DNA of 50,145 nucleotides from the IMG/VR virus record IMGVR_UViG_3300010400_000026, positions 1 to 50,145 of that record. The stretch is one strand, 5' to 3'. A program made the position numbers and the translations under genes. Each line of letters begins with the position of its first letter. Within the stretch, counting starts at the first letter, position 1. Positions 27,928 to 45,299 of the stretch are shown here, in pieces. Origin of the DNA: a virus. Lineage: Duplodnaviria > Caudoviricetes. The notes under the pieces were generated by a model. The model saw only the letters and a program-made list of their open reading frames with translations. It was not told the DNA's origin and searched no databases.

Positions 27928-28692
27928 ATGAAGCTGGCGCTGGTCCTACTCGCCTGTTCCCTGCACGCTCAGGACTTGACCCAGGAAGAGCAATGGGCCA
28001 CGGTTGTGGCACTGCATCTCTCGGGGGAAGTGTGGACCGATAAAGCGCCGACGGAGGCAGAGCTGGACGCTCCCGCACCTGCTGTGTTCCGGCTGGTTGA
28101 GTCCGACAGGCCGTTGCGTGTCCACACCGCCGCTTGGCAATTGCCAGTTGTATCTCCCAGCGTCACCGTGTCCTTTTCCGGCCAAGGTGCCGAGGCATTG
28201 CGCGCGCTAACCGGCAAGCGCATTCCCGGCATCCAGATGGTGCAAGGCACGGTGTGCTCGCATGGCACCGGTAGCGTATCGGTTGGCGCCGTCATCCAGG
28301 AGGCGCACCGCCAGAGGTTTCAGACGCTGCTGCCGTCGGTCGGCACGGCGATCGTGCAACGCACGGTGAACCTGAATTGGCGCAACATCACCATGAACGT
28401 CTTTCGCATAGCCACTGGGACCGCGTTGATGATTTTTACCGGGGGCACGGTTACCGCCAGTGCCGCGGTCACGAGTGGCGTGGCCTACGCACACGGGTTC
28501 TCTGATACCCTGCCGCTGCTTTTTACCGGAGTACCGAAACCCGACCCGTACCTGAATTCTGTGGCCGATTTCAACTCCAAACTGGAGCTCTCAGGCACGC
28601 CTGAAATGGAAGATTGCCGGTCGATTCTGTTCACCGCGGTCTACGGAAAGAGCACGCCGGTTCTGGCTGGCCCGGTGCAGTTGGTGCCCTGA
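27928..28692 (+). CDS. Exported protein with signal peptide
   Basis: MKLALVLLACSLHA-QD; internal hydrophobic hairpin. Confidence 0.6.
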   Translation: MKLALVLLACSLHAQDLTQEEQWATVVALHLSGEVWTDKAPTEAELDAPAPAVFRLVESDRPLRVHTAAWQLPVVSPSVTVSFSGQGAEALRALTGKRIPGIQMVQGTVCSHGTGSVSVGAVIQEAHRQRFQTLLPSVGTAIVQRTVNLNWRNITMNVFRIATGTALMIFTGGTVTASAAVTSGVAYAHGFSDTLPLLFTGVPKPDPYLNSVADFNSKLELSGTPEMEDCRSILFTAVYGKSTPVLAGPVQLVP

Positions 28693-28699
28693 CAAAAGA

Positions 28700-29089
28700 A
28701 TGCCACTGCAAAGATACGTAAACGGGGTCGCGGCGCCAGTCAGTATTCCAGCCGCTTTCTGGGATCTCATCAGCGGCTGGAAATCCATCACCGTGGGCGC
28801 GGTGGAAATCGCCAAGCTCTGGTATGTGGCCATCGAAGGGCATCCGTGGCCGAATGAGATTGATGTTGCGATAAACGGAACTCTGATTACATTCGGCGTC
28901 CTAGCGTTACGCGACACGGTGAAAACCGCGATCGAAAGATCGACCGCCAAACTCGCCAGCGCTGTCGTGAACCCGGCGAGCCCAGAAGCGCAAGCAACGG
29001 CCGCCGAGGTGCCGACCGCGCCAGTCGCTCTAACGCTTGACGAACAGGCCCAGCTTTTCAAGCTGATCCAAAAGGTAGGGGGCAAATGA
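28700..29089 (+). CDS. Holin-like membrane protein
   Basis: L.GWKSI...two hydrophobic segments...G..ALRD. Confidence 0.45.
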   Translation: MPLQRYVNGVAAPVSIPAAFWDLISGWKSITVGAVEIAKLWYVAIEGHPWPNEIDVAINGTLITFGVLALRDTVKTAIERSTAKLASAVVNPASPEAQATAAEVPTAPVALTLDEQAQLFKLIQKVGGK

Positions 29090-29250
29090 CCCGCCAGTGC
29101 CTGCGCCGTGAAGGCTTCAAGATCGCGTTCGCCGAGTTGTCGGCTCGCTATCCCGGTGAGGACCGCAAGCGACGCCGAGCCATGGCGCGGGATCTTTCAA
29201 AGCGCACGCTGCGCGAGATGCGGAGGAAACTCAATGCCCTGGCAAGCTAA
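29086..29250 (+). CDS. Small basic protein (absent from ORF track)
   Basis: MTRQCLRREGFKIAFAELSARYPGEDRKRRRAMARDLSK...; ATGA coupling. Confidence 0.5.
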   Translation: MTRQCLRREGFKIAFAELSARYPGEDRKRRRAMARDLSKRTLREMRRKLNALAS

Positions 29251-29401
29251 GGATTCTAGTCGGTTCACCCGCAAGGCCAACACGCCGAAGAAGAAGCGCC
29301 AGTGGGCCACCCTGGCGGATCGCCTGCTCGCCTCCGGCAAGTCCGAAGGTGACTCGATCCGCATTGCCAATGGCGTCATCAAAAAGCGAGGTTCGAAGTG
29401 A
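29234..29401 (+). CDS. Small basic ChaB-like protein
   Basis: GGAGG RBS; MPW...RQWA..A...L..G.SEG..IRIANG. Confidence 0.55.
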   Translation: MPWQAKDSSRFTRKANTPKKKRQWATLADRLLASGKSEGDSIRIANGVIKKRGSK

Positions 29402-29826
29402 TACAGCCCACCGATCAGCAGCTCGCCGAGCTCGCCAAATACATCGATGCCCAGATCGCCAAGCTGATTCCGAAATGGCAGGCGGCTGTTGGCGTTTCAC
29501 AGGGGCCATTCGGATATCTGCCCACCAACGCTGCACAGCTTGGCCTGGTGCGCGCGCAGATCGAAATGCTGCAAGCCACCAAAGGCAGCCTGGCCGATTA
29601 CCGGCTGGCGGTGAGCAATTGGCGATTGAACGATCCGCAGTACGTGCGGTTGGGGTTATTGCGTCCAGGCTTCCCGCCCATGTCTCCCGCGATCGAGGAC
29701 GCCATGACGGAGCTCGGCGGCAAAACTGCGCTCGCCAAGGAGATCACAGACGCCGCGGTCGCCGCGGGGATCCCACCGGAGCAGACCGCGGCGCTGTTAA
29801 AAGCCCTCGGCGATAAGGTCGCGTAA
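29398..29826 (+). CDS. Hypothetical protein
   Basis: Coupled ORF. Confidence 0.6.
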   Translation: MIQPTDQQLAELAKYIDAQIAKLIPKWQAAVGVSQGPFGYLPTNAAQLGLVRAQIEMLQATKGSLADYRLAVSNWRLNDPQYVRLGLLRPGFPPMSPAIEDAMTELGGKTALAKEITDAAVAAGIPPEQTAALLKALGDKVA

Positions 29827-29836
29827 GGAGCACACT

Positions 29837-30118
29837 ATGGTCAAAACTCTCGCCGATGTGACGTTGACGGGCAGCGCCCAGCAGCTGACGGCAACTCCAA
29901 CGAAAGCCGCTTGGGTGCAGGTGCAGGGCATCGGCTCAAACGCCGCGTTCCGGATTGGCGACGCCAGCGTCGGCGCGGCTCGCGGGGTTGTGGTGCCAGC
30001 TTCCGGCGGCGGGCAGTTCTTCCCTCCGATCGGCGAGTCACGGTCATACGACTTGTCGCAAATCTACGTCAAGGGCACCCTGAACGACACGATTGCAGTC
30101 ATGTACGGGACGAGATAA
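29837..30118 (+). CDS. Small beta-rich virion protein
   Basis: AAGGAG RBS; N...IGD..V...G..V...DLSQIYV.G motif. Confidence 0.6.
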   Translation: MVKTLADVTLTGSAQQLTATPTKAAWVQVQGIGSNAAFRIGDASVGAARGVVVPASGGGQFFPPIGESRSYDLSQIYVKGTLNDTIAVMYGTR

Positions 30119-30122
30119 ACAG

Positions 30123-30866
30123 ATGAAGATATTCAGACTCTTTGTCGTTTGCGTGCTGGTGGTGGCCATCTGCTTTACGCAGACCATCCCACCTCCAGGC
30201 GGCGGGGGCGGGAGTGGGACGGTAACGAGCGTCGGGTTCACGGGTGGCTTGATCTCTGTTGCCACGGCGACGACTACACCGGCGCTGACGGTGGCGGGCA
30301 CGTCGGGAGGGGTCCCGTATTTCTCTTCGACATCCACATGGGCATCGAGTGGATTGCTGGCACAGTACGGCGTCATGATCGGCGGCGGCGCGGCGGCTAC
30401 CCCGGCAACCATCTCCGCTTCGACTACCACCACACACGCGCTATTCGCGACTGCCACGGCGCCGGCATTCCGGGCGCTCGCCCTGGGAGACTTGCCCACC
30501 ACGGTCAAGGCGCGCCCGCTCAGCTTCACGTTTTCCGGCAACGGCTCGGCTCTGACCACTGGCCTGGTGGCTTATGACGTTGACGCCACATCGCCGTGCA
30601 CGATTTCCGGTTATGCGATTGGAGCGGATCAAGGCACCGTCACCGTCAAATTCTGGAAAGTGGCCGGGGGAACTGCTCTGCCTACCGTCGCTAATGTCAT
30701 TTCGACGAGCGGGGTATCGCTGTCCTCCGGGACGCGCGTTCGATCGACCACCGTAAGCGACTTTACCGACACCACTGTCGCTGCACAGGATCAGGTAGCT
30801 GCCACCATCACGGCGGTGGCCGGCGGCGCGACGTGGGTGCAGGCAAAGCTGGAGTGTAGCCAGTGA
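30123..30866 (+). CDS. Fibre-like protein with signal peptide
   Basis: MKIFRLFVVCVLVVAICFT-Q; GGGSGTVTSV, GTSGGVPYFS, PAFRAL...DLP fibre motifs. Confidence 0.65.
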   Translation: MKIFRLFVVCVLVVAICFTQTIPPPGGGGGSGTVTSVGFTGGLISVATATTTPALTVAGTSGGVPYFSSTSTWASSGLLAQYGVMIGGGAAATPATISASTTTTHALFATATAPAFRALALGDLPTTVKARPLSFTFSGNGSALTTGLVAYDVDATSPCTISGYAIGADQGTVTVKFWKVAGGTALPTVANVISTSGVSLSSGTRVRSTTVSDFTDTTVAAQDQVAATITAVAGGATWVQAKLECSQ

Positions 30867-32332
30867 AAAAAGTTCTTATTTTTGTGCTGATCTATTTCCT
30901 GATTTGCCCCACACCGGTTATCTTCGCCGCGATCACGGCCACAACCGCGTGGGAGGTGCGTTCTGGCAGCGCGGCGACAAACGGGGGCGGATTTGATATA
31001 GCCACCGCGGGTACCAACATGGCGATCTTCGACAACAAGAACGCCGCAGGCTGCTCCAGCTGCCAATCGGCCAGCGTCAACATCTCCACAACAGATGCAG
31101 TTACGAACGGCACCACGACCATAACCTCAGCGACTGCGAACTTCTCATCTGCGATTGTGGGAAATGTCATCTACGTCACCGGAGGAACTGGTTCCATCAC
31201 TGCCGCATGGTATCAGGTCGCCACGTTTACTAACTCTACGACCATCGTGGTTGACCGGTCGACTGGGTTGACCACTGGCACGGGCGCGACTATGAACATC
31301 GGCGGCGCGCTTGACCTTCCCACCACTGCGAACTCCGTTCCCGTGGTTGCGGGCAATACGATCTGGGTCAAGGGTGCATCCTACACCGTCGCCAATGCCA
31401 CTTACGCCAACGGCACCGTTTCAGCGCCCATCTGGTGGGTGGGCTTCACATCAACTCACGGCGACGGCGGCAAGGCGACGCTCGTCGCCTCGGGCTCCAG
31501 CGGGCAGATGATTACCAGCGGAAACTACAATCGCTGGAACAATTGGACATGGGACGCAAACGGTGCCACCACGGCTGCCGAGGGGTGCTTCACTGCCGCG
31601 CAAGGCACTACAGCCGACAACATTGAATGCAAAAACTATGAGGCCGCCACTGGTATCAGTGGAGCCGCCCTAGGGACATTCACGAATTTGTACAGTCACG
31701 ATGGAAGATCCGGATGTACCCAGGCCGTTTCGAACCCGGCCCGCCTATCCAAATTTGTCATTGACACCCAGCCGTGCATCGGCATCGCTTTCACTTCTGG
31801 CTCTTGTACCAATGCCTGCAACTTGACAGTCGAAAATGGAATCATACGAAATGGGACTGGCGCTACCGGGCACGGGATCTCATCGACCGTCACATCGGGC
31901 GGCGTCATCATCGAGCGTGTAACCATCGACACCATGGCCGGCGACGCCATTCTGTGCAGCGGCGCAGATGTCTGTGTGAACACGGTTGGTCGCAACCTGA
32001 TTCTTTCGAACATTACGGGCACCGCACTCAACTCCAGCACCACGGACTACACGGCGGCCCAGTACACCGCGTTTGGATTTGACTACATCGGTTTCTACAA
32101 CAATGGCACCAACCGCACCCGCATTCCGGCTGGCGCGCACGATGTGACGATCTCCGCGCAGCCCTACATCGCCGCCGGCACGAACTATGGACTGAATAGC
32201 ATCGGGGGCGCGCAAGTGCGAGGACTCGGGTGGCCCGGCACTTTCCAGGGCCTGACCAGCACCGTCGATTACGGCGACTTGGGCGCGGCGCAGGCGCAGT
32301 CTGTTGCAAGCACTCGCGGCTACGCCCAGTAA
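30863..32332 (+). CDS. Right-handed beta-helix (pectin-lyase-like) protein with signal peptide
   Basis: MKKVLIFVLIYFLIC...FA-A; AGNTIWVKG; Asn/Thr/Cys-rich coil repeats. Confidence 0.6.
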   Translation: MKKVLIFVLIYFLICPTPVIFAAITATTAWEVRSGSAATNGGGFDIATAGTNMAIFDNKNAAGCSSCQSASVNISTTDAVTNGTTTITSATANFSSAIVGNVIYVTGGTGSITAAWYQVATFTNSTTIVVDRSTGLTTGTGATMNIGGALDLPTTANSVPVVAGNTIWVKGASYTVANATYANGTVSAPIWWVGFTSTHGDGGKATLVASGSSGQMITSGNYNRWNNWTWDANGATTAAEGCFTAAQGTTADNIECKNYEAATGISGAALGTFTNLYSHDGRSGCTQAVSNPARLSKFVIDTQPCIGIAFTSGSCTNACNLTVENGIIRNGTGATGHGISSTVTSGGVIIERVTIDTMAGDAILCSGADVCVNTVGRNLILSNITGTALNSSTTDYTAAQYTAFGFDYIGFYNNGTNRTRIPAGAHDVTISAQPYIAAGTNYGLNSIGGAQVRGLGWPGTFQGLTSTVDYGDLGAAQAQSVASTRGYAQ

Positions 32333-32335
32333 ATC

Positions 32336-35300
32336 ATGCGGCGCTGTCTCCTATTTCTCCTGCTCGGCGGGCTCCACTGTTTCGGCCAGAACATCCAGAC
32401 CGTCTTCGAAGTGGATTCGCTGGGCGCGCAAACCAACCGTCCGATCACTTTCGGTCGCATCTTCGTCAAAGGCGAGATCACCGCCGGCAACTGCCCGCAA
32501 GTGCTGGTTGGTGGTACGGCCCCAACCCAGTGGCAGGCGGATGTGAAGAACTGGTGGGATGACGGCAGTGTCAAGTTCTCTGTCATCAGCTACGTCAAAA
32601 CCCTGGCCTCTGGCGGCTCGCACGCGATCACGTACACAAGCGGCGCGGCCTGCAACTCAGGCGGCGCTTTCGCCAACGGGATGACGCAAGCCCAGATGCT
32701 GGCTTTCAATTCCGGCGGTTCGGGATGGGGGGCGGAGCTGAACGTCAACGCGATCCCAAACTCGTTTTTCTCCACCGGCTTTGAAAACGGGACGATCCAG
32801 GACTATTGCGCGCCTGGCACCTTCAACGCCGGCGCTCAGGAATTCTGCTCGGGAAACAATGGCGGCAACGTCGAGATCACCGGAGTGGGCAGCACCACGG
32901 TCGTCGCGAGCCCGACGCATGCCGGCACGAAGGCGCTCAAGCTACAGGTTTCAACTCCCAACACTCCGACCAGCGGCGTACGCATGTTCCGCTGGCTCGA
33001 TCCACGGAACTCGCAAGCGAATTACTACTCGGTGTGGATGAACATCCCACAGCGCTACACCCTGACGGGCAACCCGGCCACCGGGCACTATGTCAATCTG
33101 TTTCAGTTCAAAAGCGCGAACGGCGCCGGTCGCATCGATCCGATCTGGGCGTTTCACATCAACGATGACGACCCCAGCCACTGGTATCTGCAAGCGGTCT
33201 GGGGCGACGGAGGCTTCACCGCAGCTGGGCCGCAGTCGGGCGATAACGTCAGCCGTAAGGTCTACACGCAGACGACCAAAGAGCTGCCCGTCAACCGGTG
33301 GGTGCACCTCGAGGCGTATCTCGAGCAGTCGAACGCTTTCGGCGGCCGGCTCACGATGTGGCAGGACGGCGTGCAGATTTTCGACTTCACGAACGTCCGG
33401 ACGAGCTACACCAACTGCGCGTATAACGCCTGGTGCGCCGATGACGAATGGTCGGTGAACCTCTACACGGACGGGTTGACCCCGAATCCGGCATATCTCT
33501 ACATCGACGACGTGTCGATTTACAACGCGCGCGCGAACGCAAAAGACATGCTCAGCGCGTTGCCGGATCCGTCGGGCTCTCCGGAGTGCGGCCCGGAGTA
33601 TTGGTTGAAAGGCCCAGTCGTCACGCAACTCAAGCTCCATGACTGCACCTCGGCGGCAACTTACGATTTCGGGTTCAAAGACAAGCGGTTGACCGTACTC
33701 TCCGCAGCCATCACCGCAGCCGCGACCAGCATCAATCTGCTCTATCCGGGTGACGTTTGCAGGCTCGCTTTACCCACGGTCATCGACATTGAGCTCGAGA
33801 AGCTGAATGTGACCGCATGCACCGCCGGTGGGAATCCCTTGACCGTAACGCGCGGGTTCGGCGGCACCACAGCGGCCAGCCATGCGGCAGCGAAACACGT
33901 GGTTTCGGAATCCCAGGCCAGTCAACTGGCCGCGGCCCCGTCTTCAGGAGTAGTGGCACCACACACCTACAAAAGCCTGCATCCGATCTTCACGCTCTCG
34001 TTTTATCCCGGCCCGAATTACGCCTCTTCCACGTGTTCGGGAAGCGATCCCTATTGCTCGGTGAAGGTCGATTTCATCCTGGAAAACATCAAGAACACGA
34101 GCGTACAAGACCAGGTGTACAGCTTTGTGCTGAAGACCGGCCTGGGCCTGGCCACCGTGCACAGCCGCCCGAGCTTCACCCATGCGGCTTACGCGAGGTG
34201 GCGGGAAACCTTCTGGAGTGGGACTGGCCCCGGAGCGGTGCGCATTGATCCGAACTTCGCCTATCTGAAATCCACAAAAGTGCTGCCCAACTACGATCCA
34301 GCGGTTACTGTGAACCCAGCTGCGGACTATGGCACTTTCATCAACGCCGCGGTGAGTGATGGGGGTATCGTGGGCGGAAAATGCTGGCAATCGGCCAGCA
34401 CGAGTTGCGCCGGCCTACTGGTCAAGTCGATGAGCAGCAACAGTGAAGGTGCACCGATCCAGCGCGAAGAATTGGACTACCTGTATAACTCCAGCTCCTG
34501 CGGCTCACCGAACAGCGATTGCGCCAAAGCGCTTTACATGCTCACCGGGGAGAAGGGCGCTATTGATACGTTGCTGCCCGCAAGCCTCTGTACTGCGCAG
34601 CCTGGCTGCCGGTACGGTGGCACCTGGGATGCTCTTCAGTCGGCCCCGTATCACATCCGGGAAGGTCGATTCGGAGCCAGTGCTCCCAACGCATTCTATT
34701 CGTCTGCGCGTGCCTCGAAGGATGCAGGCGCGAATACCGCGGCGACGGCTGCCGTTGCAGGAAACCTGGTGATCGGGCGCCCGCAGTCCCGGCACGCATT
34801 TTCTGAGCAGTACGGCAACAGCACCTTGAGCCCCGCCGCCGGCTGCCGGGCACCGGGAGCGCTCGTACCCGTGAACTGCGCAACCACGAACGGCTGGAGT
34901 GTGGGTTTCAATGACATTCCGAATCATCTGGTCGATTACTATTTCCTGCCCTACATCCTCACCGGGGATGCGTTCTATCTGGAAGGCGAATATTTCGCGG
35001 CTTCTGTCAGTTTGTTGACGATCAATCCAGGTACCGGGATGTTTCAGTCGAATGGTTTTTTCGGCTACATTTCGCCGTCCGACGTCCCGCGCAACTTTGC
35101 CTGGGGGATGCAGGCCGTCTCCCGCGCTGCTTTCCTGGCGCCTGATGGATCCAAGGAAAGCGACTATTACGCGTCGATGCTCAACTCGGGCATCGAAGTA
35201 CAGGAAGGCTTCGCAAATCTCACGGGCACCAGCCTGACGCCTTCCGATACGGCGTGTGCAGCGTACAACGCCGCCACCGCGAATCGCTGGTGCTGGGGCA

Positions 35301-36025
35301 GAAAGACCGTGGCTCAGGACGCGATCGTAAAGAACCGTGCGCCGAACGTCGGCGCTTGCATGTCGTCGTCGAGTGACATCGATATCACCAAAAGCAATCA
35401 GGCCACGGGCGGCTATCTGGCTAACTTCCTCGTGCTCGCGGTCAATCAGATTTCGGAGCTCGGGTTCACACAGGCGAACGCCATCCGGGATGAGTACAAC
35501 AAGCGCATCACCGAAATGGTGATGGATGCGACGTTCAACCCGTACCTGGTGGCGGCCGTGCGCACTCCGGTCAAAGATGCTTCCGCAACGTGCCCGGCAT
35601 CTCCCATGCTCGCGAACCTGGCAGCCGTGAAAGACGCTTTCGTACCTACCGTCCAGGTGATAAACAACTTCTGCAGCGGAGGCCAGACGTGCAACGGCAT
35701 GACCAACCCCGCGGCACTGTGGGGCTTCAAATGCACGGATCACGACTATCCTCTGATCGCACGAGCCACGGCGGCTTACGCTGCGCAGAACTCGACCAGC
35801 ATCACGAACGCGAATTGCCCAGGTGGCATCTGCCTGGGTATCGCTGCGTTTGCGTGGCTCGACGCCGAAGTGCCCTACTTTTCAAAAAACAGCACCGTCA
35901 GCGGAACCTGCGGGACTTCGGATGTGCAGATCAAGTTCGCTTTGCAGCCGCGCACCGCCATCGTGGGCGGTAATTCGACGGCCATCAAAGGCGTCACCAT
36001 CACGGGAAAGGCAGCTATCCGATGA
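32336..36025 (+). CDS. Large exported mosaic polysaccharide-lyase-like protein
   Basis: Signal peptide; ITFGRIFVKGEI..QADVKNWWDDGSVKF (PcRGLX/YetA-type N-domain); jelly-roll insert; PYILTGD.FYLE...R.FAW helical-barrel motifs. Confidence 0.6.
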   Translation: MRRCLLFLLLGGLHCFGQNIQTVFEVDSLGAQTNRPITFGRIFVKGEITAGNCPQVLVGGTAPTQWQADVKNWWDDGSVKFSVISYVKTLASGGSHAITYTSGAACNSGGAFANGMTQAQMLAFNSGGSGWGAELNVNAIPNSFFSTGFENGTIQDYCAPGTFNAGAQEFCSGNNGGNVEITGVGSTTVVASPTHAGTKALKLQVSTPNTPTSGVRMFRWLDPRNSQANYYSVWMNIPQRYTLTGNPATGHYVNLFQFKSANGAGRIDPIWAFHINDDDPSHWYLQAVWGDGGFTAAGPQSGDNVSRKVYTQTTKELPVNRWVHLEAYLEQSNAFGGRLTMWQDGVQIFDFTNVRTSYTNCAYNAWCADDEWSVNLYTDGLTPNPAYLYIDDVSIYNARANAKDMLSALPDPSGSPECGPEYWLKGPVVTQLKLHDCTSAATYDFGFKDKRLTVLSAAITAAATSINLLYPGDVCRLALPTVIDIELEKLNVTACTAGGNPLTVTRGFGGTTAASHAAAKHVVSESQASQLAAAPSSGVVAPHTYKSLHPIFTLSFYPGPNYASSTCSGSDPYCSVKVDFILENIKNTSVQDQVYSFVLKTGLGLATVHSRPSFTHAAYARWRETFWSGTGPGAVRIDPNFAYLKSTKVLPNYDPAVTVNPAADYGTFINAAVSDGGIVGGKCWQSASTSCAGLLVKSMSSNSEGAPIQREELDYLYNSSSCGSPNSDCAKALYMLTGEKGAIDTLLPASLCTAQPGCRYGGTWDALQSAPYHIREGRFGASAPNAFYSSARASKDAGANTAATAAVAGNLVIGRPQSRHAFSEQYGNSTLSPAAGCRAPGALVPVNCATTNGWSVGFNDIPNHLVDYYFLPYILTGDAFYLEGEYFAASVSLLTINPGTGMFQSNGFFGYISPSDVPRNFAWGMQAVSRAAFLAPDGSKESDYYASMLNSGIEVQEGFANLTGTSLTPSDTACAAYNAATANRWCWGRKTVAQDAIVKNRAPNVGACMSSSSDIDITKSNQATGGYLANFLVLAVNQISELGFTQANAIRDEYNKRITEMVMDATFNPYLVAAVRTPVKDASATCPASPMLANLAAVKDAFVPTVQVINNFCSGGQTCNGMTNPAALWGFKCTDHDYPLIARATAAYAAQNSTSITNANCPGGICLGIAAFAWLDAEVPYFSKNSTVSGTCGTSDVQIKFALQPRTAIVGGNSTAIKGVTITGKAAIR

Positions 36026-36369
36026 AACAACGACTCGCAGTTGTGTTTGCACTCCTAGGGCTGCTCGCGCTCGCGCAGACCGGCGGTGTCACCGTCTCCG
36101 GCACCTCGACCGGCACAGGCCAGAACATCACGGGATCGATCACCCTCCCTTTCGCGCCAAGCGCGATCGCATTCAGTTGCTCTTCGCCGGCGATCGCCAA
36201 GGGCCAAACCGTGAGCTGCACCGCAACGCTCGACGCACCGGTACCGGCGGGCATGACGGCGACCATTACGCTCACCACCAGCCCGGCAACCGGGTTTACG
36301 GTGGCCACAGGCACTCCGACGATCGCGGCGGGCGCCAGCTCGGCCACGTTCGCCATCACACGTCAATGA
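36022..36369 (+). CDS. Ig-like beta-sandwich protein with signal peptide
   Basis: MKQRLAVVFALLGLLALA-Q; G.TV.CT.TL..P.P...TI.AG.SSATF.I. Confidence 0.65.
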   Translation: MKQRLAVVFALLGLLALAQTGGVTVSGTSTGTGQNITGSITLPFAPSAIAFSCSSPAIAKGQTVSCTATLDAPVPAGMTATITLTTSPATGFTVATGTPTIAAGASSATFAITRQ

Positions 36370-36617
36370 GCGCGCGGAAACTCCAGGACGATTCGCTCGA
36401 TTGCGAGCTGGTGGAACAGTGCACCAAGACGCGCGGCTATCAGCTCATCAGCCTGCGCCTGAGCCACATGCTGGAGACGAAACTGCGCGACCTCCGCGGA
36501 TCGCTCGACCAGGCCGGAACCGAACGGGCTCGCGGGTACCTGGACGCGATCGAGCGGTGTCTCGAACTTCCGGAAATTCTGATGAAAGAGTTCCGGGAAA
36601 AACCCAAGAAGCGATGA
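36366..36617 (+). CDS. Small head-associated protein
   Basis: GY......RARG.L.AI...L.LP pattern seen between podophage portal and scaffold. Confidence 0.5.
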   Translation: MSARKLQDDSLDCELVEQCTKTRGYQLISLRLSHMLETKLRDLRGSLDQAGTERARGYLDAIERCLELPEILMKEFREKPKKR

Positions 36618-36964
36618 CCGCGCCCGCCTACCTCGCGACGATCCGCTGCCACTACTGCCAGCGCTTTCACCAGCACCGCGAAATCCTGCGGCTGACGGGC
36701 GGGCCGGTCATGTGCTGGAAGTGCTGGCAATGGCACGAGCACGCGCTCAAGCTACTCTCAGGCGCGATCCCGCCAGGCTGCCAGGTCTGTGGCTTGACGT
36801 TCGCCGATCTGGAGGCACGCTCGGCTGACGGCAATACACGGATGTACGTTCACATGAAAGACGGACTCTACCAGGTGCTTTGTCGTATGTGCAGCGATGC
36901 CTACACCGTGAAACGGCGCGACCTTTACGGCGCGACCGAATTCGGGCACCGGTTGAAATTGTGA
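36614..36964 (+). CDS. Double zinc-finger protein
   Basis: Four CxxC motifs. Confidence 0.6.
   Translation: MTAPAYLATIRCHYCQRFHQHREILRLTGGPVMCWKCWQWHEHALKLLSGAIPPGCQVCGLTFADLEARSADGNTRMYVHMKDGLYQVLCRMCSDAYTVKRRDLYGATEFGHRLKL
36827..36836 (+). promoter_or_regulatory. GACGGCAATA, candidate late-promoter element
   Basis: About 140 nt upstream of the scaffold/capsid genes. Confidence 0.35.
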
Positions 36965-36975
36965 GGAGCAAGTAA

Positions 36976-37860
36976 TTGCCGAAAACAGCTGGCGTAGCCG
37001 ATGACGAGCAGGTTGTCGACTCCCGACATCCCGACGATCCGGATGCCCCGAAAGCGGGCGATGGTGCGGACAAAGGCAAGCCCAAGGAAGAACCGACTGT
37101 ATCGAAAAAGGAATACGACGCGCTCAAGAAACAGAACGAGGAGCTGGCCGAATCGGAGCGCTACTGGGCCGGCCAGGCCAAGGCCCGACCGAAGCCCGAA
37201 ACGGACGATACCGACGACGAGCCGGACCAGCAGGACGATGCTGCCGGTAAGCCCGATATCACCGATGACGACACGCCGGAGAAGTTCACCGACGAGCTGT
37301 CGACCAAGGGCATGCAAGCGCTCATCAAACGCGGTGTGCTCACGCGCAAAGAGGCCGAGTCACTATTCCGCAAGGTCGCGGCTGAGGAAGCCGAAAAAGT
37401 GGTGGGCCGCGCGGTCAGGCACCTCTCGACCGATGCCCAGATGGTGCGGGAATATCCCGACCTGAACGACGCCAAATCTCCGCTATTCAAGAAAACCGGC
37501 GAAGTCTTCCAGGAGATGGTTGCCGAAGATCCCGCGCTCAAGAAATCACCAGCCGCGCTGAAGCTGGCCGCCCGCACCGCCAAGCTCCAACTCGATCTGG
37601 AATCCCGGCAAAACGGGCACGAGACGCGAGATCGGGACACCGACGACGACCGCGAGCAGTCGCGCGACCGGCAGCGGCGCATTGACGCGCAGAATGGCGA
37701 CCGCGGCCGCGGCGCACGCTCCGACATCGAGGACGAAGACCCTGGCCTGTCACCCATGCAACGCAAGTTCCTGGGCCAGATGAAGGTTTCGGAAGAAGAC
37801 TTCTCCAAATCGAAGAAGGAGCTGGGGGTCCAGACGAACGGAAACGGGAGGCGCCGGTGA
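36976..37860 (+). CDS. Head scaffolding protein
   Basis: GAGGAG plus TTG start; acidic and helical; C-terminal LS..QR...GQM.VSEEDF.K. Confidence 0.7.
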   Translation: MPKTAGVADDEQVVDSRHPDDPDAPKAGDGADKGKPKEEPTVSKKEYDALKKQNEELAESERYWAGQAKARPKPETDDTDDEPDQQDDAAGKPDITDDDTPEKFTDELSTKGMQALIKRGVLTRKEAESLFRKVAAEEAEKVVGRAVRHLSTDAQMVREYPDLNDAKSPLFKKTGEVFQEMVAEDPALKKSPAALKLAARTAKLQLDLESRQNGHETRDRDTDDDREQSRDRQRRIDAQNGDRGRGARSDIEDEDPGLSPMQRKFLGQMKVSEEDFSKSKKELGVQTNGNGRRR

Positions 37861-38522
37861 GCAAGAAGCGCATTGTGCAGGGCATCGGTGAGTCCAAGGC
37901 CTTCAACGATCTGAACGCGCCCGAAGTCGACCCGCGCCTCAAGCACTGCCACGTGGGCGGAATGCCCGTCGAGAACCTACCCGACGATGTGAAGGTCCGG
38001 CTGTTTTATCGCCAGACCGACGAAGGTATCGCCGAAGCGAACGAGGGCAAGGCCGACAGCGCCGCGCGTGTCAGCCAGGATCAGCTGGGCAAGCAGATCC
38101 AGGAGCGCCGCGATTTCCTGGAGAATAACATTCCGATGGAGCCGTGGGAGGCTCCTGATCCGCTCAAAGCCGTGGCTGACGCGCACGCGAAGCCCGGTAT
38201 GCGGCCAAAGTTTCTGAGTGAACGCCGGCTGAACAAAGAAGGCAATTTCACTCGTGGTTTCGAAGTCTGCATGGATGCCAGTGGCGATCCGGTGAAGATG
38301 GGCACGCTGGTGCTGGCCCACATGCCGGAAGAGATGGCCGAACGCCGGAACGAAACCTATCGGCGCAAGAGCGACGCTCATCTTGCAGAGGTCTATCAGA
38401 ATGCTCAGGGCGCCGGTGTGCGTCCCGAGGAACAATTGGAGAAGCAGGGGCAGACAAGGCGTGGCCGCGAGGCTCCCGAAATGTCCGAGGAATCGTACTT
38501 CCCGGTCGATTCCGCCAGATAG
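37857..38522 (+). CDS. Head-module hypothetical protein
   Basis: LVLA.MPEE.AE.R...Y motif common before the capsid gene. Confidence 0.6.
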   Translation: MSKKRIVQGIGESKAFNDLNAPEVDPRLKHCHVGGMPVENLPDDVKVRLFYRQTDEGIAEANEGKADSAARVSQDQLGKQIQERRDFLENNIPMEPWEAPDPLKAVADAHAKPGMRPKFLSERRLNKEGNFTRGFEVCMDASGDPVKMGTLVLAHMPEEMAERRNETYRRKSDAHLAEVYQNAQGAGVRPEEQLEKQGQTRRGREAPEMSEESYFPVDSAR

Positions 38523-38571
38523 TCTTCAGCGCAGTTCCGGGTAATTCAAAACCGAAAGTGAGGGCCGATCC

Positions 38572-39096
38572 ATGGCTAACGTGGATAACCCGCATGGACT
38601 GCGACCGTTGATGCGCACGCTGAGTGGTGGTGTGCCGCATGTCCAACTATTCAAAAAAGTAGTGGGATATGGAACTGCGCTTTTCATGTGGGACGCCGTC
38701 TTCCGAGTGGCTGACGGCTCAGTCGATAAATCAGGCACGCCCGGAACGACGCTTTACAGCGGCGTGAATCTGAATCATGGCGCGGCTTCGAAGGCCACCG
38801 AGCACCTGGTCATCGTTGCCCCTGACGCCGTTTTTGAGTGTCAGGACAACGCCGACACCGATGGCTTCGCCGAAGCCGACATGGGGTTGAACGTCAACCT
38901 CGAACTGAACGCCGGCAGCGCAACGTTGCTCACCAGCGGACACGAACTCGATGAGTCCACCGTCGATGTGACGAACTCACTCGACGTGCACATGCTCCAG
39001 AAATTGGATGTGCCGGATAACGATTATGGCGCTCATCTGCGCGTCGAAATCGTATTCAACAAGCACCGCATGGGGCTTGTGGCGGTGGGGGTCTAA
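38572..39096 (+). CDS. Capsid cement/decoration-like protein
   Basis: MAN.D.P.GLRP motif; immediately upstream of MCP. Confidence 0.6.
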   Translation: MANVDNPHGLRPLMRTLSGGVPHVQLFKKVVGYGTALFMWDAVFRVADGSVDKSGTPGTTLYSGVNLNHGAASKATEHLVIVAPDAVFECQDNADTDGFAEADMGLNVNLELNAGSATLLTSGHELDESTVDVTNSLDVHMLQKLDVPDNDYGAHLRVEIVFNKHRMGLVAVGV

Positions 39097-39098
39097 CC

Positions 39099-40022
39099 AT
39101 GGAAATTCGTGGAAATTTCTCCGACTTCTTCTTCGAGACGATGTTGCCCGCTCTCAACAGCGTGGTCTGGCAGAACTACAAAGCCAAGACCAAGATGGTG
39201 CCGCGTCTCTTCCAGATCGAGGGCTCCGAGCGCTCGATCGAGCAGTTCAGCCAAGTCTCCGGCGTGGGTTTGTTGGCTGAGATCCCGGAAACGGGCGAGG
39301 TCCGCACCGACCAAATGATGCAGGGATTCGACAGCTTGTTTAAACACAAGCGGTTCGGCCTCGGCATTGAAACCTCGCGCGATCTGGTCGAAGACGACAA
39401 GATCGGGCTGGTACGCCGCGGTGCGAGCGAACTCGGGCTCTCCGCGACGGAGACCCAGGAGATCGACGGCGCGAGTACGTTCAATAACGCGTTTTCCGGT
39501 TCGTTCGTCGGGCCGGATGCCGTTGCGTTGTGCTCGGCTTCGCATCCGCTGTTCAAGGTTGGGGGCGTGCAATCCAACACGCTCTCGGTTGCGGCCGATC
39601 TGGATGTCACTTCGCTCGAGCTGGCGCTCACCGATTGGGAGACGCAGCGCAAGGCGAATGGTCATCAGATCAGCCTGCCGACGCCGCGCCTGCTGGCAGC
39701 GCCGGCCAATCGCTGGAATGCTCACGAGATCCTGAAGGGCTCGTGGCGCTCCGATACCGCCAACCGCACGGTGAATGCTTTCCAGTACGGAGAGCATGGC
39801 CCGGTCGATGACATCCTGATCTGGCCGAAGCTGACCGATCCGGACGCCTGGTTTCTGGTGGCGCCGCCGGATTCGACCGGCTTGATTTGGTTCTGGCGCG
39901 TGAAGACCTATACCCGTGGTTTCTTCGATGACCGCACGGAACGCGGCGGCACCATCGTTCGCTACAAGAAGTCGCACGGGTGGTACGACTACCTGGGCGT
40001 GTACGGTTCACCCGGAGCGTAG
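39099..40022 (+). CDS. Major capsid protein (HK97 fold, Mu gpT-like)
   Basis: EDD, FNNAF, G.D.VALCSASHP, P.LTD.DAWF, D..GVYGS.GA. Confidence 0.88.
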   Translation: MEIRGNFSDFFFETMLPALNSVVWQNYKAKTKMVPRLFQIEGSERSIEQFSQVSGVGLLAEIPETGEVRTDQMMQGFDSLFKHKRFGLGIETSRDLVEDDKIGLVRRGASELGLSATETQEIDGASTFNNAFSGSFVGPDAVALCSASHPLFKVGGVQSNTLSVAADLDVTSLELALTDWETQRKANGHQISLPTPRLLAAPANRWNAHEILKGSWRSDTANRTVNAFQYGEHGPVDDILIWPKLTDPDAWFLVAPPDSTGLIWFWRVKTYTRGFFDDRTERGGTIVRYKKSHGWYDYLGVYGSPGA

Positions 40023-40101
40023 GCGCACATCGTCAACTTCGGGGATTGGGGCCGCTTCTCCCTCCCAGATGGCCGCCCCGCCTTAAAGGAGAACTAAAAC
40101 C

Positions 40102-40656
40102 ATGTCGGCAAGAGCAACGAAATTCAAAAACGTAAAGATCACCGGTGACCTGGTGGTCGATGGAAACTCGACGGTTGGCGGCGCCGGAGTTGTCTCGGGC
40201 GAGATGGATGCCAACCTGACGCTGGCGGCCACACGGACGCTGGCTGTGACCACTGCCGACAAACTGACGGTAGGCGGTAAGATCGTTCCCCAAACCTTTC
40301 TCATCACACGCAGCATCTTCGACGGCGCGACAACCGCGGCTTTCGATGGCGTGATTCCGATCCCGGTAGCCTCGAAGATCGTCAGTGTCAAGATTCGCTG
40401 GCAGACGGCTTCGGGTGCGTCGGAAACCCTGATGGTCAAGAAGGTTCCCAGCGGGACGGCCAAAGCGTCGGGCACCGATTGTCTGGCCGCGGGGATCGAC
40501 CTGACGGCGACAGCCGACACCAACGTCTCACCGGCCCTGCACGCGACTGCTGCGAACTACACATTCGCGGCGGGCGATGGGCTGGGATTCGTGGCTTCTG
40601 GCGCGCCGACGTCTCTCGATGGCGTGGGCATCACGGTCGAATTCCAGAGGGTCTAA
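40102..40656 (+). CDS. Virion structural/decoration protein
   Basis: AAGGAG RBS; beta-rich; follows MCP. Confidence 0.6.
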   Translation: MSARATKFKNVKITGDLVVDGNSTVGGAGVVSGEMDANLTLAATRTLAVTTADKLTVGGKIVPQTFLITRSIFDGATTAAFDGVIPIPVASKIVSVKIRWQTASGASETLMVKKVPSGTAKASGTDCLAAGIDLTATADTNVSPALHATAANYTFAAGDGLGFVASGAPTSLDGVGITVEFQRV

Positions 40657-41927
40657 TGCGCGGCGTAACGCTCGCGCTGGTCCTCTTTGCGGCAGGGCTC
40701 GGCCTGTCCGCCCAAACGGTGTTCAAAGGCGGGAGCACTCCCTCTGCCAGCAAATCCATTTCCATCAGCCAGGTCACTGGCCTGACCACCGAGCTCAACA
40801 AGCGGCCCGTTAAAGGCGCCGGCTATACGGCAGGCACCGCGGCGCGCATTAACTCGCTCGGCCAGATCGATTCCATCACGGGCGCGACAACCAATTGCGT
40901 GCTGGAGGACGGCACCAGCGTCGTCTGCCCTTCCGGTGGCGGCGGTTCCTCCTCTCCTTTTGTGTTCGTCGGAGTGCTGGCCAGCCTGCCAGGGACCTGC
41001 AACCAGAGCGACCTGAGTTTTGTCACCAATGCGACGCCCGGCCAACAAATCTACGAATGCAGCGCGACCAACACCTGGACCCAGCAACTGAATAGCGGCG
41101 TGGCCGGGGCCAGCATGGCGCTCGACAATTTGTCGAGCGTTTCCATTAACACGCATCTGCTCCCCGGTACCGCCTCAATCGACGTTGGGGCGTCCGGAAA
41201 TACCTTTCGTGCCGGCTACTTCAGCGGGACGGTAACGGCCACCACGTTTTCGGGCAATGCGACGACTGCCACCGCGCTCGCGGCGAATGGAACGAACTGC
41301 GCCGGCGGCACGAGCTTTGCCTTGGGCACGGACGCAACTGGAGCGGCGGAATGCGGCACGGTCCAGACCATGGTGGCCTCGGGCGCCAGCCACAAAGGCG
41401 GGCTGGTTCCTGATCCCGGTGTCACCTCCGGTACGAGTAAATTCCTACGGGAAGACGGCACATGGACCACACCAACGGGCGGCGGCTCAGTGACCAGTGT
41501 CGCTCTCGCAGTTTCGAGCGCTCCGTTCTGCATTACCGGCTCGCCCATCACCGCTTCCGGCACTCTCACGTTTGCGCCTTGTGGAACCAGCGGCGGCGTA
41601 CCGTATTTCTCGGCCTCGAACGCCATGCTGAGCACGCCGGTCCTCGCGGCGAATGGGGCTATGGTGGGCGGTGGCGCTGGCGGTGCGCCGCGCACCACAC
41701 CTGCTACGATCGATCCCTCGAGCGGCGATGTCGTCACACCTGGAACGGTCACCACGGCTACTGTCGTCGCCACGGGCGGCGCTTCGCGGCTCTATCTGGC
41801 GGCCGGCACGGCCCCAACAAACACGATCTTGAACGGTGTCACCTACGACGCCGTGATTTATTTCGACTCCGCCGACGCCAAACTGAAGATCCGCAAGCTG
41901 GCGGGCACGGTGGTCATACTCGAATGA
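40656..41927 (+). CDS. Fibre-like protein with signal peptide
   Basis: MRGVTLALVLFAAGLGLSA-Q; ISQVTGL..EL, GNATTATAL, GLVP.P...KFLREDGTW, GTSGGVPYFS. Confidence 0.7.
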   Translation: MRGVTLALVLFAAGLGLSAQTVFKGGSTPSASKSISISQVTGLTTELNKRPVKGAGYTAGTAARINSLGQIDSITGATTNCVLEDGTSVVCPSGGGGSSSPFVFVGVLASLPGTCNQSDLSFVTNATPGQQIYECSATNTWTQQLNSGVAGASMALDNLSSVSINTHLLPGTASIDVGASGNTFRAGYFSGTVTATTFSGNATTATALAANGTNCAGGTSFALGTDATGAAECGTVQTMVASGASHKGGLVPDPGVTSGTSKFLREDGTWTTPTGGGSVTSVALAVSSAPFCITGSPITASGTLTFAPCGTSGGVPYFSASNAMLSTPVLAANGAMVGGGAGGAPRTTPATIDPSSGDVVTPGTVTTATVVATGGASRLYLAAGTAPTNTILNGVTYDAVIYFDSADAKLKIRKLAGTVVILE

Positions 41928-42820
41928 CCTACGGCGAGATTCGTCTCCGCCTGACCCAGTTGTGGCCTGGGGTTTCTTTGGACCTCATCGATGGCTGGAT
42001 ACTCGACCGCTACCAGTCGATTCTGGATAAGCTCACCTGGCAGCGGCTCCAGGTCGAGCAGGTCATCACCACCAAGGACGAATACAACACCGGCACCGTC
42101 GCGGTCACGAAGGGCTCGGCAGTGCTGACGGGGACCGATACCGTCTGGGCCGAGGAGATGACCGGACGCATCATCCGGGTAGCGGTGGCGACTTCAGAGG
42201 GCATCCAATCGGTTGGGCCCACGTACTACGAATTCACATGGTCAGGCTCCGATCCGACGCTGGGCTCGCTCGATCGTGGCTGGGAAGACGAGGATGCTAC
42301 CGGGCTTTCGTATCGCATCAACCAGAACATCTATCCGCTGCCCGCCGGCACGCGGCTGATCCATGACATCCGCAACCCGCGCACGAATCTACCGCTCAAA
42401 CGCTTGTCGCTCGCGCAACTGAATGAGCTGGCCGCCGGGCGCACGGCTTACGGAGATCCGGAGCACTGGTGCCTCTACATGGATCAGAACAGCGATCCGC
42501 CCGTGCCACAGGTGGAGTTTTACCCGATTCCCACGCGCTTGCAGGGACTGATCGGCACGTTGATTTTCGAGGAAATGCCGGATGGGACCGACACCGCGGT
42601 TTCGCTGCTGCCCTGGGTTCGGCCGGCCGCGCTGATTGCCGGCGTCCAGATGGATATTGCCCGACATCTGAAGGAATGGAACTCGCTCCAGAGCCTGACG
42701 GTGCAGTACATCGAATATCTGAGCGACATGGTGCGTATGGAAGCGCAGCGCATCGGGCCCTCCAAGATGCGCCTCGAGGACCGGTTCACCCGGCATCGGC
42801 GCCGGCGATACACACGGTGA
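41924..42820 (+). CDS. Head-tail adaptor/ring-like protein 1
   Basis: Helical N-terminus, Y.LP, G.P..W, FYP.P, helical C-terminus; inserted GTV.VT.GS..TG..T.W domain. Confidence 0.55.
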   Translation: MTYGEIRLRLTQLWPGVSLDLIDGWILDRYQSILDKLTWQRLQVEQVITTKDEYNTGTVAVTKGSAVLTGTDTVWAEEMTGRIIRVAVATSEGIQSVGPTYYEFTWSGSDPTLGSLDRGWEDEDATGLSYRINQNIYPLPAGTRLIHDIRNPRTNLPLKRLSLAQLNELAAGRTAYGDPEHWCLYMDQNSDPPVPQVEFYPIPTRLQGLIGTLIFEEMPDGTDTAVSLLPWVRPAALIAGVQMDIARHLKEWNSLQSLTVQYIEYLSDMVRMEAQRIGPSKMRLEDRFTRHRRRRYTR

Positions 42821-42823
42821 GCC

Positions 42824-43567
42824 ATGGACCTCCAGACTCTTCAGACCCACACACTGGAACGGCTCGGGGAAACCGGAACATCCGGCTACTACACCGGCGC
42901 TGAAGCGATTGGCGCGCTGAATGCCGCGCAGCGGATATTCGTTCTGCTGACGCTCGCCCTCGAAAAGACCACGGTCTTTCCGCTTGCGCCGAACACGGTC
43001 TTTTACCATCTGCTCGACTCGCTGCCCGATTTCCTGTTGCCGTTGCGCATCCGCGTGACTGGCGGGGCACGCGTGAAGCCCGGACGCTTGCAGGACTTCG
43101 ATGCCCTCAATCCCACCTGGCAGCTCGCCGCGGGCAATCCGGAGCGCTATGCCTGCCTGGGCTTCGACTTCCTGGTGCTATACAAAACACCACCCGACAG
43201 CACCGTGAGCCTCGATCTCACCCATGCGTATTCACCCGCCCTGATGACGTCACTTTCAGTCACGCCGCAGATCCCCGAGGAGTATCACGCGGCGCTGATC
43301 GACTTCGCTGTGCCCTATCTGCGGATGAAAGAGGGCGCGAGCGAGTTCACGAAATCACTGTTCATGATGGATCGGTTTCTGACGGCCGCCCAAAAGATGG
43401 CGAATTTCGTGCGGGCCCGCAACCTGGCGCAGCGCTACGACCGGATGCCGTTCGCGCTGGACCGGTTCGATCGCTCGAAGCTGTTGAAGCTGGCAATTAA
43501 ACAGCAGAAGCCTGCCATGCTCGCAATCCCGCAGGCTGAAGGAAAACTGGTGCCGACCAATGGCTGA
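42824..43567 (+). CDS. Head-tail adaptor/ring-like protein 2
   Basis: YT..E....LN.AQ; W....G.P.RY; PQIPEEYH.AL.DF. Confidence 0.65.
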   Translation: MDLQTLQTHTLERLGETGTSGYYTGAEAIGALNAAQRIFVLLTLALEKTTVFPLAPNTVFYHLLDSLPDFLLPLRIRVTGGARVKPGRLQDFDALNPTWQLAAGNPERYACLGFDFLVLYKTPPDSTVSLDLTHAYSPALMTSLSVTPQIPEEYHAALIDFAVPYLRMKEGASEFTKSLFMMDRFLTAAQKMANFVRARNLAQRYDRMPFALDRFDRSKLLKLAIKQQKPAMLAIPQAEGKLVPTNG

Positions 43568-44651: not shown

Positions 44652-45299
44652 ATGCCGCTCCTGCTCATCTCAGGCGCGCCGGCCCCGCCTGGCGTCGATA
44701 TCCGGGACACCATCGGCGATGCCCTGCCAGCGCTCAACGCGGGCGCAGAAGCTGATCTGATCTTCTGGACTTTCTCGGAACTCTACGAATGGTCGGACGA
44801 AGCTGCGAAACGTCTCGCACGTAACACAGGAGGTTTCGTTGACCGGGATGCCACCACCACGCTGAGCGATAGCGTTCCGGTCTACGCGATGCCTGCGCGC
44901 CACGTCTCGACGATCCACGTTTCGGCTGGATCCACGGCGCTCAAAGAAAGCACGGTCGACGAGCTGGAAGCGCTGGATAACGACTGGCCCTCAACCGCCG
45001 CCGACAACCCGAAACGGTTCCTGCAGGATGGCGACGAGCTGCGCGTCTATCCGCAGCCGAACGGTGCCACCGCCGGCAACCTCGGCCATGTGTTTCACCG
45101 GTTCCCGGTGACGATCACCTCGGACGCCAGCATCGCAAAAGTGCCGGTGGCGCTCCGGGATTACTTCACGTTCTACGCGCTCGCGGAAGCGCGCGGCAAA
45201 GAATCGAAGGGCGCCATGCCCGAAGTCGCGCAGTACGCGCGTGGCATGGTCGAACTGCTGGAACAGGTAGCACGGGAGTTCTGGGGAGGCGCGCAGTGA
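44652..45299 (+). CDS. Head-tail adaptor/ring-like protein 3
   Basis: FWT..EL..W..EA; Y.MP; W......P.RF; VYP.P; YAL..A..KE. Confidence 0.6.
   Translation: MPLLLISGAPAPPGVDIRDTIGDALPALNAGAEADLIFWTFSELYEWSDEAAKRLARNTGGFVDRDATTTLSDSVPVYAMPARHVSTIHVSAGSTALKESTVDELEALDNDWPSTAADNPKRFLQDGDELRVYPQPNGATAGNLGHVFHRFPVTITSDASIAKVPVALRDYFTFYALAEARGKESKGAMPEVAQYARGMVELLEQVAREFWGGAQ

Follow-up and report, generated by a model that had tools for sequence, protein, structure and literature searches.

Phage genes that carry signal peptides usually encode lysis proteins or small conversion products, and the tailspikes known to us are leaderless and assemble in the cytoplasm. Here we describe a viral contig of 50,145 bp, IMG/VR record IMGVR_UViG_3300010400_000026 (the window, by which we mean the whole stretch of DNA analysed), in which a set of genes for tail-fibre, tailspike and polysaccharide-lyase homologues begins with leaders that very probably act as host-style export signals, while the genes are still wired into the operon that builds the particle. 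This arrangement is unusual for phage tail proteins, and it recurs across the clade and in unrelated phage contigs. Among described systems, phages of Porphyromonas gingivalis come close. In the excerpted text of PMC10367356, five of their genes bear signal peptides that follow the Q-rule (Gln at +1 after the signal peptidase I cut) and are read as an adaptation to the general secretion of the host; in both cases, the leaders copy the habit of the host. As far as that excerpt describes them, the five are cargo genes of unknown function, whereas the genes considered here are large, of fibre, spike or lyase type, and lie in the structural operon. The Porphyromonas host also belongs to the Bacteroidetes, whereas the likely host here is an acidobacterium. 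The habit is described for Bacteroidetes in the excerpts of PMC5837995 and PMC10653852, and in print the Q-rule is taken as specific to them; a term search of the available text of PMC5837995 gave no mention of Acidobacteria, and among the literature matches listed, none joined the Q-rule to Acidobacteria.

Podovirus tailspike depolymerases (P22 gp9, LKA1 gp49 and those of Klebsiella phages) share with the window the beta-helix fold and lyase-type neighbours, and with relatives of the window a place among the tail genes and a conserved N-terminal domain followed by a variable enzyme body. These tailspikes are virion-borne and leaderless, whereas the proteins of the window bear leaders and are known here from their genes alone. 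Polysaccharide degraders of temperate phages that are predicted to be secreted have also been surveyed: in the excerpt of PMC13507307, 3261 of 64,678 carbohydrate-active enzymes (CAZymes) of prophages (5%) were SignalP-positive. That excerpt treats single enzymes as auxiliary metabolic genes (AMGs), with tail and baseplate proteins removed, whereas the window holds a set of six to nine leader genes, fibre-like ones included, among head and tail genes. A further parallel is WceF of Pantoea stewartii, a secreted tailspike-like enzyme which, in the excerpt of PMC7949094, has a tailspike-type beta-helix and acts, once exported, as a free protein on exopolysaccharide (EPS) made by the producer itself; it differs in being chromosomal, in an EPS gene cluster, and not part of a phage. 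The tail module itself compares with that of SU10 (PF24175; excerpt of PMC9509320), as the adaptor at 42824–43567 belongs to the same family and head genes, adaptor and large nozzle-like protein follow in the same order; for SU10, that excerpt, to which the check was confined, gave no sign of appendages with leaders. A term search of the available text of the acidobacterial virus paper PMC11924767 gave no mention of signal peptides. Neither an exported virion appendage of a tailed phage nor a leader-bearing set of fibres or tailspikes in a structural operon was found in the main text of the open-access papers searched.

Leaders were called by comparison of homologues and with our own heuristic, which scores the n-, h- and c-regions and the −3/−1 positions of Sec/signal peptidase I leaders: a positively charged n-region, an uncharged h-region of 8–18 residues, and small residues at −1 and −3. 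The residue at +1 is ignored, save that Pro is forbidden there. In the window, 9 of 67 greedily called open reading frames (ORFs) were flagged, with scores of 3.9–7.1 (Table 1): seven genes named in an earlier note on this DNA, together with 21480–21905 and 21921–22691. That note, made from the letters of the sequence, had ascribed basic-hydrophobic leaders to the seven genes, most of them ending in an A/G/T-Q site, and none to the portal, scaffold, major capsid protein (MCP), adaptors and nozzle. All seven do score at least 3.9, 165–929 being a weaker case, and TerL, portal, scaffold, MCP, adaptor-like and nozzle-like proteins are not flagged. Gln stands at +1 in four of the seven leaders at the heuristic's site, and in five if the CFT/Q site of 30123–30866 is counted, where the heuristic placed its own cut four residues earlier. 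As controls, we ran the same script on two related phages of other hosts with the same type of head and tail module, in which 3 of 79 ORFs (Alcaligenes phage QDWS535) and 3 of 72 (Roseobacter phage CRP-901) were flagged; all six encode 136 aa or fewer, and some are spurious antisense ORFs.

The starts of the leader genes abut or overlap the stop of the gene upstream, and the only alternative starts fall within the hydrophobic core. The GC content and the GC content at third codon positions (GC3, 0.70–0.75) of the six main genes match those of their neighbours; GC3 is lower (0.57–0.61) only for 165–929, 21480–21905 and 21921–22691. The seven leader proteins, several of which the earlier note had described as having many spaced Cys, are also richer in cysteine, with 64 Cys in 3011 aa (2.1%) versus 33 in 7271 aa (0.45%) for 22 leaderless late proteins, and each of them has an even number of Cys in its mature part. 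We do not take this as proof that they fold in the periplasm, because leaderless members of the same families are equally Cys-rich: leaderless relatives of the 489-aa protein SP489 have a median of 9 Cys, versus 8 in leader-bearing ones, with even counts in 17 of 30 and 57 of 79, respectively, and a leaderless spike of a related phage (L011) has 7.

The leaders resemble those of the likely host. Portal relatives (41–53% identity) were found on 16 viral contigs and on three contigs from metagenome-assembled genomes (MAGs), two labelled Bryobacteraceae and one Planctomycetota. In one of the Bryobacteraceae MAGs (G001), the relative lies on a 97.9-kb contig with host-like genes in its flanks, as an integrated prophage. 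Furthermore, residues 29–131 of the fibre-like protein SP423 (window 40740–41048) are 44–51% identical to a module of a secreted chromosomal protein of the host family, which is present in 122 of 151 genomes, a count that falls to 120 of 149 when the unpublished G082 and G107, which have one match each, are left out. Because two of the portal relatives fall in Bryobacteraceae MAGs and the SP423 module is shared with this host-family protein, the sequence comparisons point to an acidobacterium of the Bryobacteraceae kind as the most likely host. The chromosomal protein (L043, L045–L050) has a beta-sandwich-like N-terminal start, PPLTTIQDVLYKADG..., and an internal fibre-type module, and it adjoins serS in several loci.

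Across 18 loci of the G001 MAG (L022–L039, ~250 kb), the heuristic called 39 leaders among 208 ORFs, 14 of the 39 with Gln at +1 and several more with A-Q a few residues past the cut. A glutaminyl cyclase (Glu_cyclase_2) was detected in two of four host-family genomes, the G001 MAG included. By this sequence comparison, the phage leaders copy the signal-peptide habit of the host, the Gln at +1 included, and the exported proteins are probably capped with pyroglutamate. The Q-rule-like habit of this Bryobacteraceae MAG (14/39 leaders, Glu_cyclase_2) lies outside the Bacteroidetes.

The leaders also recur in homologues, as the earlier note had suggested checking. They score in 79 of 120 SP489 homologues among the matches listed (a few more by eye) and in 31 of the 47 relatives examined of the 254-aa protein SP254, many of the latter with Gln at +1. 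In the lyase, SP489 and SP254 families and in spike orthologues, the sequence of the leader drifts while conservation begins at the predicted cut. Leaderless forms start at the predicted mature end, as in MALSANTVWEVR... of most viral contigs and in the L011 spike. In three families, phage forms with and without a leader are both found, and presence or absence of the leader tends to go together within a phage. These observations bear on the view that the leaders are not export signals at all, the true starts lying downstream or the hydrophobic segments being uncleaved anchors or buried assembly helices of cytoplasmic virion proteins. The segments of 165–929 and 21921–22691, which have no clear −3/−1 cleavage motif and may be signal anchors, fit this view. 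Overall, we hold it to be very improbable: the alternative starts lie inside the core and not past it, the annotated starts overlap upstream stops, hundreds of homologues have leaders too, the first residues of leaderless forms coincide exactly with the predicted mature end, and the +1 Gln habit is that of the host's own leaders. In the AlphaFold2 (AF2) model of SP489 the leader is a free helix, which says nothing for or against export. Taken together, these comparisons make it very likely that the leaders are working Sec-type signal peptides cut by signal peptidase I. We infer export and cleavage from these features, as we do the substrate and the benefit of the exported proteins discussed below.

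Table 1. Features of the window. A slash marks the predicted cut; score is that of the leader heuristic.
Feature	Coordinates	Strand	Leader	Score	Other characters
SP254b, 254 aa, hydrophobic N-terminus	165–929	+		4.72	GC3 0.59; after tail genes across contig ends
Extra leader gene, 141 aa	21480–21905	+		4.5	13 Cys; GC3 0.57; Pfam no match
Extra signal-anchor-like gene, 256 aa	21921–22691	+		5.57	GC3 0.61; Pfam no match
TerL	23948–25717	+	none		phrog_2; adjoins portal
Portal	25714–27921	+	none		48–53% identity to portals of 19 related loci
SP254, 254 aa	27928–28692	+	MKLALVLLACSLHA/Q	4.21	
SP247, 247-aa fibre-motif protein	30123–30866	+	MKIFRLFVVCVLVVAICFT/Q	6.57	leader followed by QTIPPPGGGGGSGTVTSV...GGVPYFSS module
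SP489, 489-aa right-handed beta-helix	30863–32332	+	...PVIFA/A		polysaccharide lyase/hydrolase-like
SP1229, 1229-aa two-module polysaccharide lyase	32336–36025	+	...GLHCFG/Q		
SP115, 115 aa	36022–36369	+	...LLALA/Q	7.08	leader and one small beta-sandwich
MCP	39099–40022	+	none		phrog_4523, phrog_371; annotated MCPs in 22 phage records
SP423, 423-aa fibre-like protein	40656–41927	+	...GLGLSA/Q	5.01	
g300, conserved structural-module protein	41924–42820	+			directly 5' of spike gene in relatives
SU10-type adaptor	42824–43567	+	none		PF24175 1.3e-14, 55.5 bits versus cut-off 27; phrog_399
Large virion protein, nozzle-like	45659–49198	+	none		phrog_3287 virion structural protein 3.8e-9

The bodies behind the leaders were described in the earlier note as phage fibre motifs and beta-helix, Ig-like or lyase-like folds; of these, the lyase and the beta-helix are borne out, the fibre motifs hold at the level of motifs, and the Ig-like fold of 36022–36369 is a lead only. 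The AF2 model of SP489 (pLDDT 87.5) consists of an N-terminal beta domain and a right-handed beta-helix, with the leader as helix 2–14. Foldseek returned 40 PDB matches at E≤0.001, led by PL6 alginate lyases and the pectate lyase Pel9A (TM-score normalised to target 0.58), with the AlgE4 epimerase and phage tailspike depolymerases as further neighbours; a comparison with PDB sequences gave no usable match. The family comprises 487 homologues, many with PF13229. On this model, SP489 is a candidate depolymerase-type glycan enzyme with a beta-helix. The motif A(L/I)S..TVWEVRT.G.DTNGGGF directly follows the leader in the family. Its two forms differ only at the N-terminus, which is either a leader plus ALS..TVWEVRT.G.DTNGGGF or the leaderless MALS..TVWEVR. 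Among 78 viral loci of the family (L053–L130), the leader is present in only 13, and in many of them the N-terminal ~200 aa are far better conserved than the remainder.

SP1229 matches PF14099 at aa 184–358 (8.7e-8, 32.7 bits versus a gathering score of 29.9) and, under the gathering score (18.9 versus 22.1 bits), the PcRGLX RIFT barrel PF19501 at aa 32–91, while an internal domain at aa 449–524 matches phrog_7578 and phrog_1101 (tail protein). No usable match came from PDB sequences. Twelve homologues were detected, and by eye at least five of the nine fetched have their own dissimilar leaders right before a conserved L.(I/L)YEVDG start. The putative PcRGLX-type enzyme domain begins directly after the leader in SP1229 as in its homologues, with no separate docking domain. 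The C-terminus of one homologue resembles, by eye, what is presumably a type IX secretion sorting domain.

The fibre-like proteins SP247 and SP423 have the GGVPYF module in common. Homologues of the N-terminal module of SP247 occur with a leader (P0091, P0053, P0021) and without (P0092, P0112, P0049); a search of SP247 against phage records gave no match. SP423 matches the tail-fibre repeat of BcepNazgul and Erwinia phage fibres over 8–9% of its length. In the set of 120 proteins that share its motif, the window's own included, 24 have a leader, many with Gln at +1, and 96 have leaderless fibre-type N-termini; Mtd_N, DUF2793, Peptidase_S74 and collagen domains are found in this set. The language-model neighbours of SP423 are viral clusters, and PDB sequences gave no usable match. 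For SP115, the structural neighbours of aa 44–115 (Atlas, TM 0.51–0.55) are Ig-type domains of Acidobacteriota proteins, a lead toward an Ig-like fold. SP254 has 91 relatives among 1.84 billion representatives, with a conserved core from about residue 75; its Pfam and PHROG scan gave no match.

Our preferred reading, which we hold at slightly less than even confidence, is that the exported proteins act free, off the particle, on the envelope glycans of the host itself. Late in infection, the phage would co-transcribe and co-translate, together with its particle genes, a small secretome in which a large polysaccharide lyase and a depolymerase-type enzyme with a beta-helix are joined by fibre-like and Ig-like binders of glycans or surfaces and by two proteins of unassigned fold, all of the same stock as tail fibres and tailspikes. 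With leaders tuned to the host, these proteins would cross the inner membrane, be cut and probably be capped with pyroglutamate. They would then loosen or strip the EPS or capsule of the host before and at lysis, freeing the progeny, and would destroy or mask receptors so that neither progeny nor rival phages stay stuck to the dying cell. Several observations favour this free secretome. The portal-to-scaffold interval, which holds four of the window's leader genes, is ~0.85 kb in L003 and L006, contains unrelated small genes in L005 and L011, and has other leader genes in L001; this comparison suggests a slot for variable cargo, which some relatives leave short or empty. Modules of fibre type are also present in secreted host proteins, and the window has leaderless candidates for tail or receptor-binding parts at 43560–44648, 45659–49198 and 49201–end.

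The same proteins could also end up on the virion. In this scenario, to which we give a clearly lower probability, the appendages fold in the periplasm, are cut and capped there, and dock on finished particles once holin–endolysin lysis has brought the compartments together; until then, they may also act on the envelope from inside the cell. Extended to the clade, a group of acidobacterial phages would make spikes and fibres as Sec pre-proteins, mature them in the periplasm (cleavage, pyroglutamate cap, perhaps disulfides) and mount them at lysis, a proposal that we consider doubtful but worth stating. We know of no tailed phage that assembles via exported appendages; post-lysis joining is physically possible, since P22 tailspikes and T4 fibres attach to particles in vitro. 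Much of what speaks for docking, and with it against purely free action, comes from relatives. In docked tailspikes, the N-terminus is usually conserved and the body variable, and the gene keeps a fixed position next to a structural gene that is itself conserved. In four further lineages with tblastn matches to the conserved structural-module protein g300 (L001/L004/L052, L006, L016 and L011/L013), a beta-helix spike lies directly after g300, followed by the adaptor where the adjoining sequence is known (L016, L052). The leader is present on three spikes (L052, 723 aa; L006, 520 aa; L016, 670 aa) and absent from the fourth (L011, 528 aa), and all four have ~130 N-terminal residues in common with divergent helices behind. 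Since the leaderless L011 spike shares this region, the spike leader amounts to 15 aa added in front of a conserved N-terminus of docking type. In G001, the related prophage bears a leader on its sole large spike-like gene. In addition, leader status is coordinated among neighbouring appendage genes: a leader is present in 17 of 69 neighbours of leader-bearing SP489 homologues, versus 21 of 370 neighbours of leaderless homologues (Fisher odds ratio 5.4, p 7e-6; same strand, at least 150 aa, within 6 kb, in 61 de-duplicated of the 78 loci, 17 duplicates or loci with no family ORF being left out and at least one locus with a leader wrongly scored as lacking it). In locus L058, seven leader genes stand in a row, six with Gln at +1, and whole appendage sets, not single enzymes, seem to have switched to leaders. 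Nor are the leader genes of the window set apart as cargo, with their starts against structural genes and their native composition. SP423 is translationally coupled on both sides to structural-module genes, its start overlapping the stop of 40102–40656 and its stop the start of 41924–42820. No promoter- or terminator-like sites flank the leader genes; the scan of the window, by an E. coli-type consensus that may not fit the host, gave a single promoter-like site, located on the minus strand, and no more terminator-like sites than expected by chance. Moreover, export calls for a further reason, because a lysing cell releases cytoplasmic enzymes anyway. Among portal-related lineages with enough downstream sequence, seven of nine hold at least one leader-bearing late protein of at least 245 aa (the L012 protein called by eye; L008, L010, L014 and L019 too short and left out).

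Docking is in turn opposed by the window itself. A tblastn search found no orthologue of the relatives' spike there, four of the leader genes lie apart from the tail genes, in the variable slot, the lyase lacks a docking domain at its N-terminus, and leaderless candidates for the tail parts are present. The conserved N-terminal 200 aa of SP489 are unlikely to be a lineage-specific docking domain, because the family stands beside unrelated tail types: in 75 of its 78 loci this is the only gene in common with the window, and in one, a siphovirus, the gene lies between the tape measure and minor tail proteins. The leader proteins of the window gave no tblastn match (E≤1e-3) in the portal-related loci L001–L019 and L052, which leaves no within-clade orthologues to compare. 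A complex prediction of g300 with SP423 residues 20–160 scored 0.00, without controls, and is evidence neither way. Of the interpretation in the earlier note, the export signals stand, on the host match, recurrence and coupled starts, whereas periplasmic folding and joining to the virion are a possible reading only; its alternative, in which the proteins are enzymes or adhesins secreted late and directed at capsule or biofilm, is supported at least as well as the appendage reading. Free action and docking are compatible, as an exported spike could strip receptors before lysis and be mounted afterwards. A third explanation, secreted CAZymes that widen the lysogen's polysaccharide foraging or remodel its biofilm and play no part in phage entry or exit, seems unlikely to us. 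The phage is temperate, a relative is integrated in the 97.9-kb MAG contig, the Ig-like and fibre-like modules resemble secreted Acidobacteriota proteins, and prophage CAZymes are widespread, some with signal peptides (5% in the excerpt of PMC13507307). However, expression in the lysogen is not expected, because the genes are part of the late operon, have coupled starts and give no hint of promoters of their own; their composition is native to the phage, and the relatives are mostly on phage-sized contigs. A reading of the six main genes as morons was rejected on the same grounds, GC and GC3 matching the neighbours and promoter- or terminator-like sites of their own being absent.

If the enzymes act free, these phages would secrete a glycan-degrading toolkit during infection, which bears on how the viruses of very abundant soil bacteria pass through and out of thick exopolysaccharide, and on how viral CAZymes in soil metagenomes are read. 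If they are mounted on virions, the locus would represent a periplasmic branch of tailed-phage assembly, a two-compartment route not described before, and exported spikes could double as receptor-destroying enzymes before release. Either way, annotation as tail fibre or AMG from the body alone overlooks the leader. The leader is also a cheap clue to host range, because its +1 Gln habit matches the host family.

The remaining leader genes differ somewhat from the main six. SP254b matches phrog_14820 (1.8e-14), a family with no assigned function, and its N-terminus could be a signal peptide or a signal anchor. The genes 21480–21905 and 21921–22691 lie shortly ahead of the packaging genes and have the appearance of cargo acquired more recently, because their GC3 (0.57–0.61) is under that of the rest.

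The record is a single contig of ~60% GC with nearly all genes on the plus strand. It is the complete record of a podovirus-like phage of soil type, which is temperate as judged from a tyrosine integrase at 12774–14093. After the portal, the late operon continues with a series of small genes and leader genes, one CxxC-rich and one scaffold-like protein and two conserved proteins, then the MCP, 40102–40656, 40656–41927, 41924–42820, the SU10-type adaptor, 43560–44648 and a second phrog_399 protein, followed by an M15-like peptidase (weak match), a 1179-aa virion protein and 49201–end. The operon runs on over the contig ends to 165–929, a GNAT acetyltransferase and three large proteins. MCP and terminase identity to cultured podoviruses of other hosts is only 25–33%. 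The label nozzle for 45659–49198 comes from gene order alone, and its comparison with PDB sequences gave no usable match.

Two phrog_399/SU10-adaptor-type proteins (42824–43567 and 44652–45299) are present, and g300 has, by eye, a similar helical N-terminus; this suggests two or three adaptor-like paralogues in the window (41924–42820, 42824–43567, 44652–45299). The AF2 model of g300 (five sequences) is poor, with a pLDDT of 59.6; with Foldseek, nothing reached E≤0.001, and the rows returned were weak ones to tail chains of SU10 and cyanophage A4. A search of the g300 profile against PDB sequences returned one weak row, Dit gp20 (E 0.013), and hhalign of g300 against the adaptor 42824–43567 found nothing (probability 0.3). 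Because of this null result and the poor model, the idea of g300 as an adaptor paralogue stays a guess.

No terminal repeat or circular overlap of 11–200 nt was found in the contig. The last ORF (49201–50145) leaves the contig end and, if the record is circular, closes seven codons on, at positions 1–24. Between the leader cassette and the scaffold gene lies the CxxC-rich protein of ~116 aa (36614–36964, 8 Cys), without a match in the Pfam/PHROG scan, which is kept at the same place in L001, L005 and L011 (38–42% identity). The GNAT acetyltransferase gene (981–1568) stands among the genes for tail and ejection proteins, and a GNAT gene is also found in the same module of QDWS535, CRP-901 and the G001 prophage. 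The early region includes a tRNA-Met gene (10598–10672) and encodes a ParB-like protein (16495–18117).

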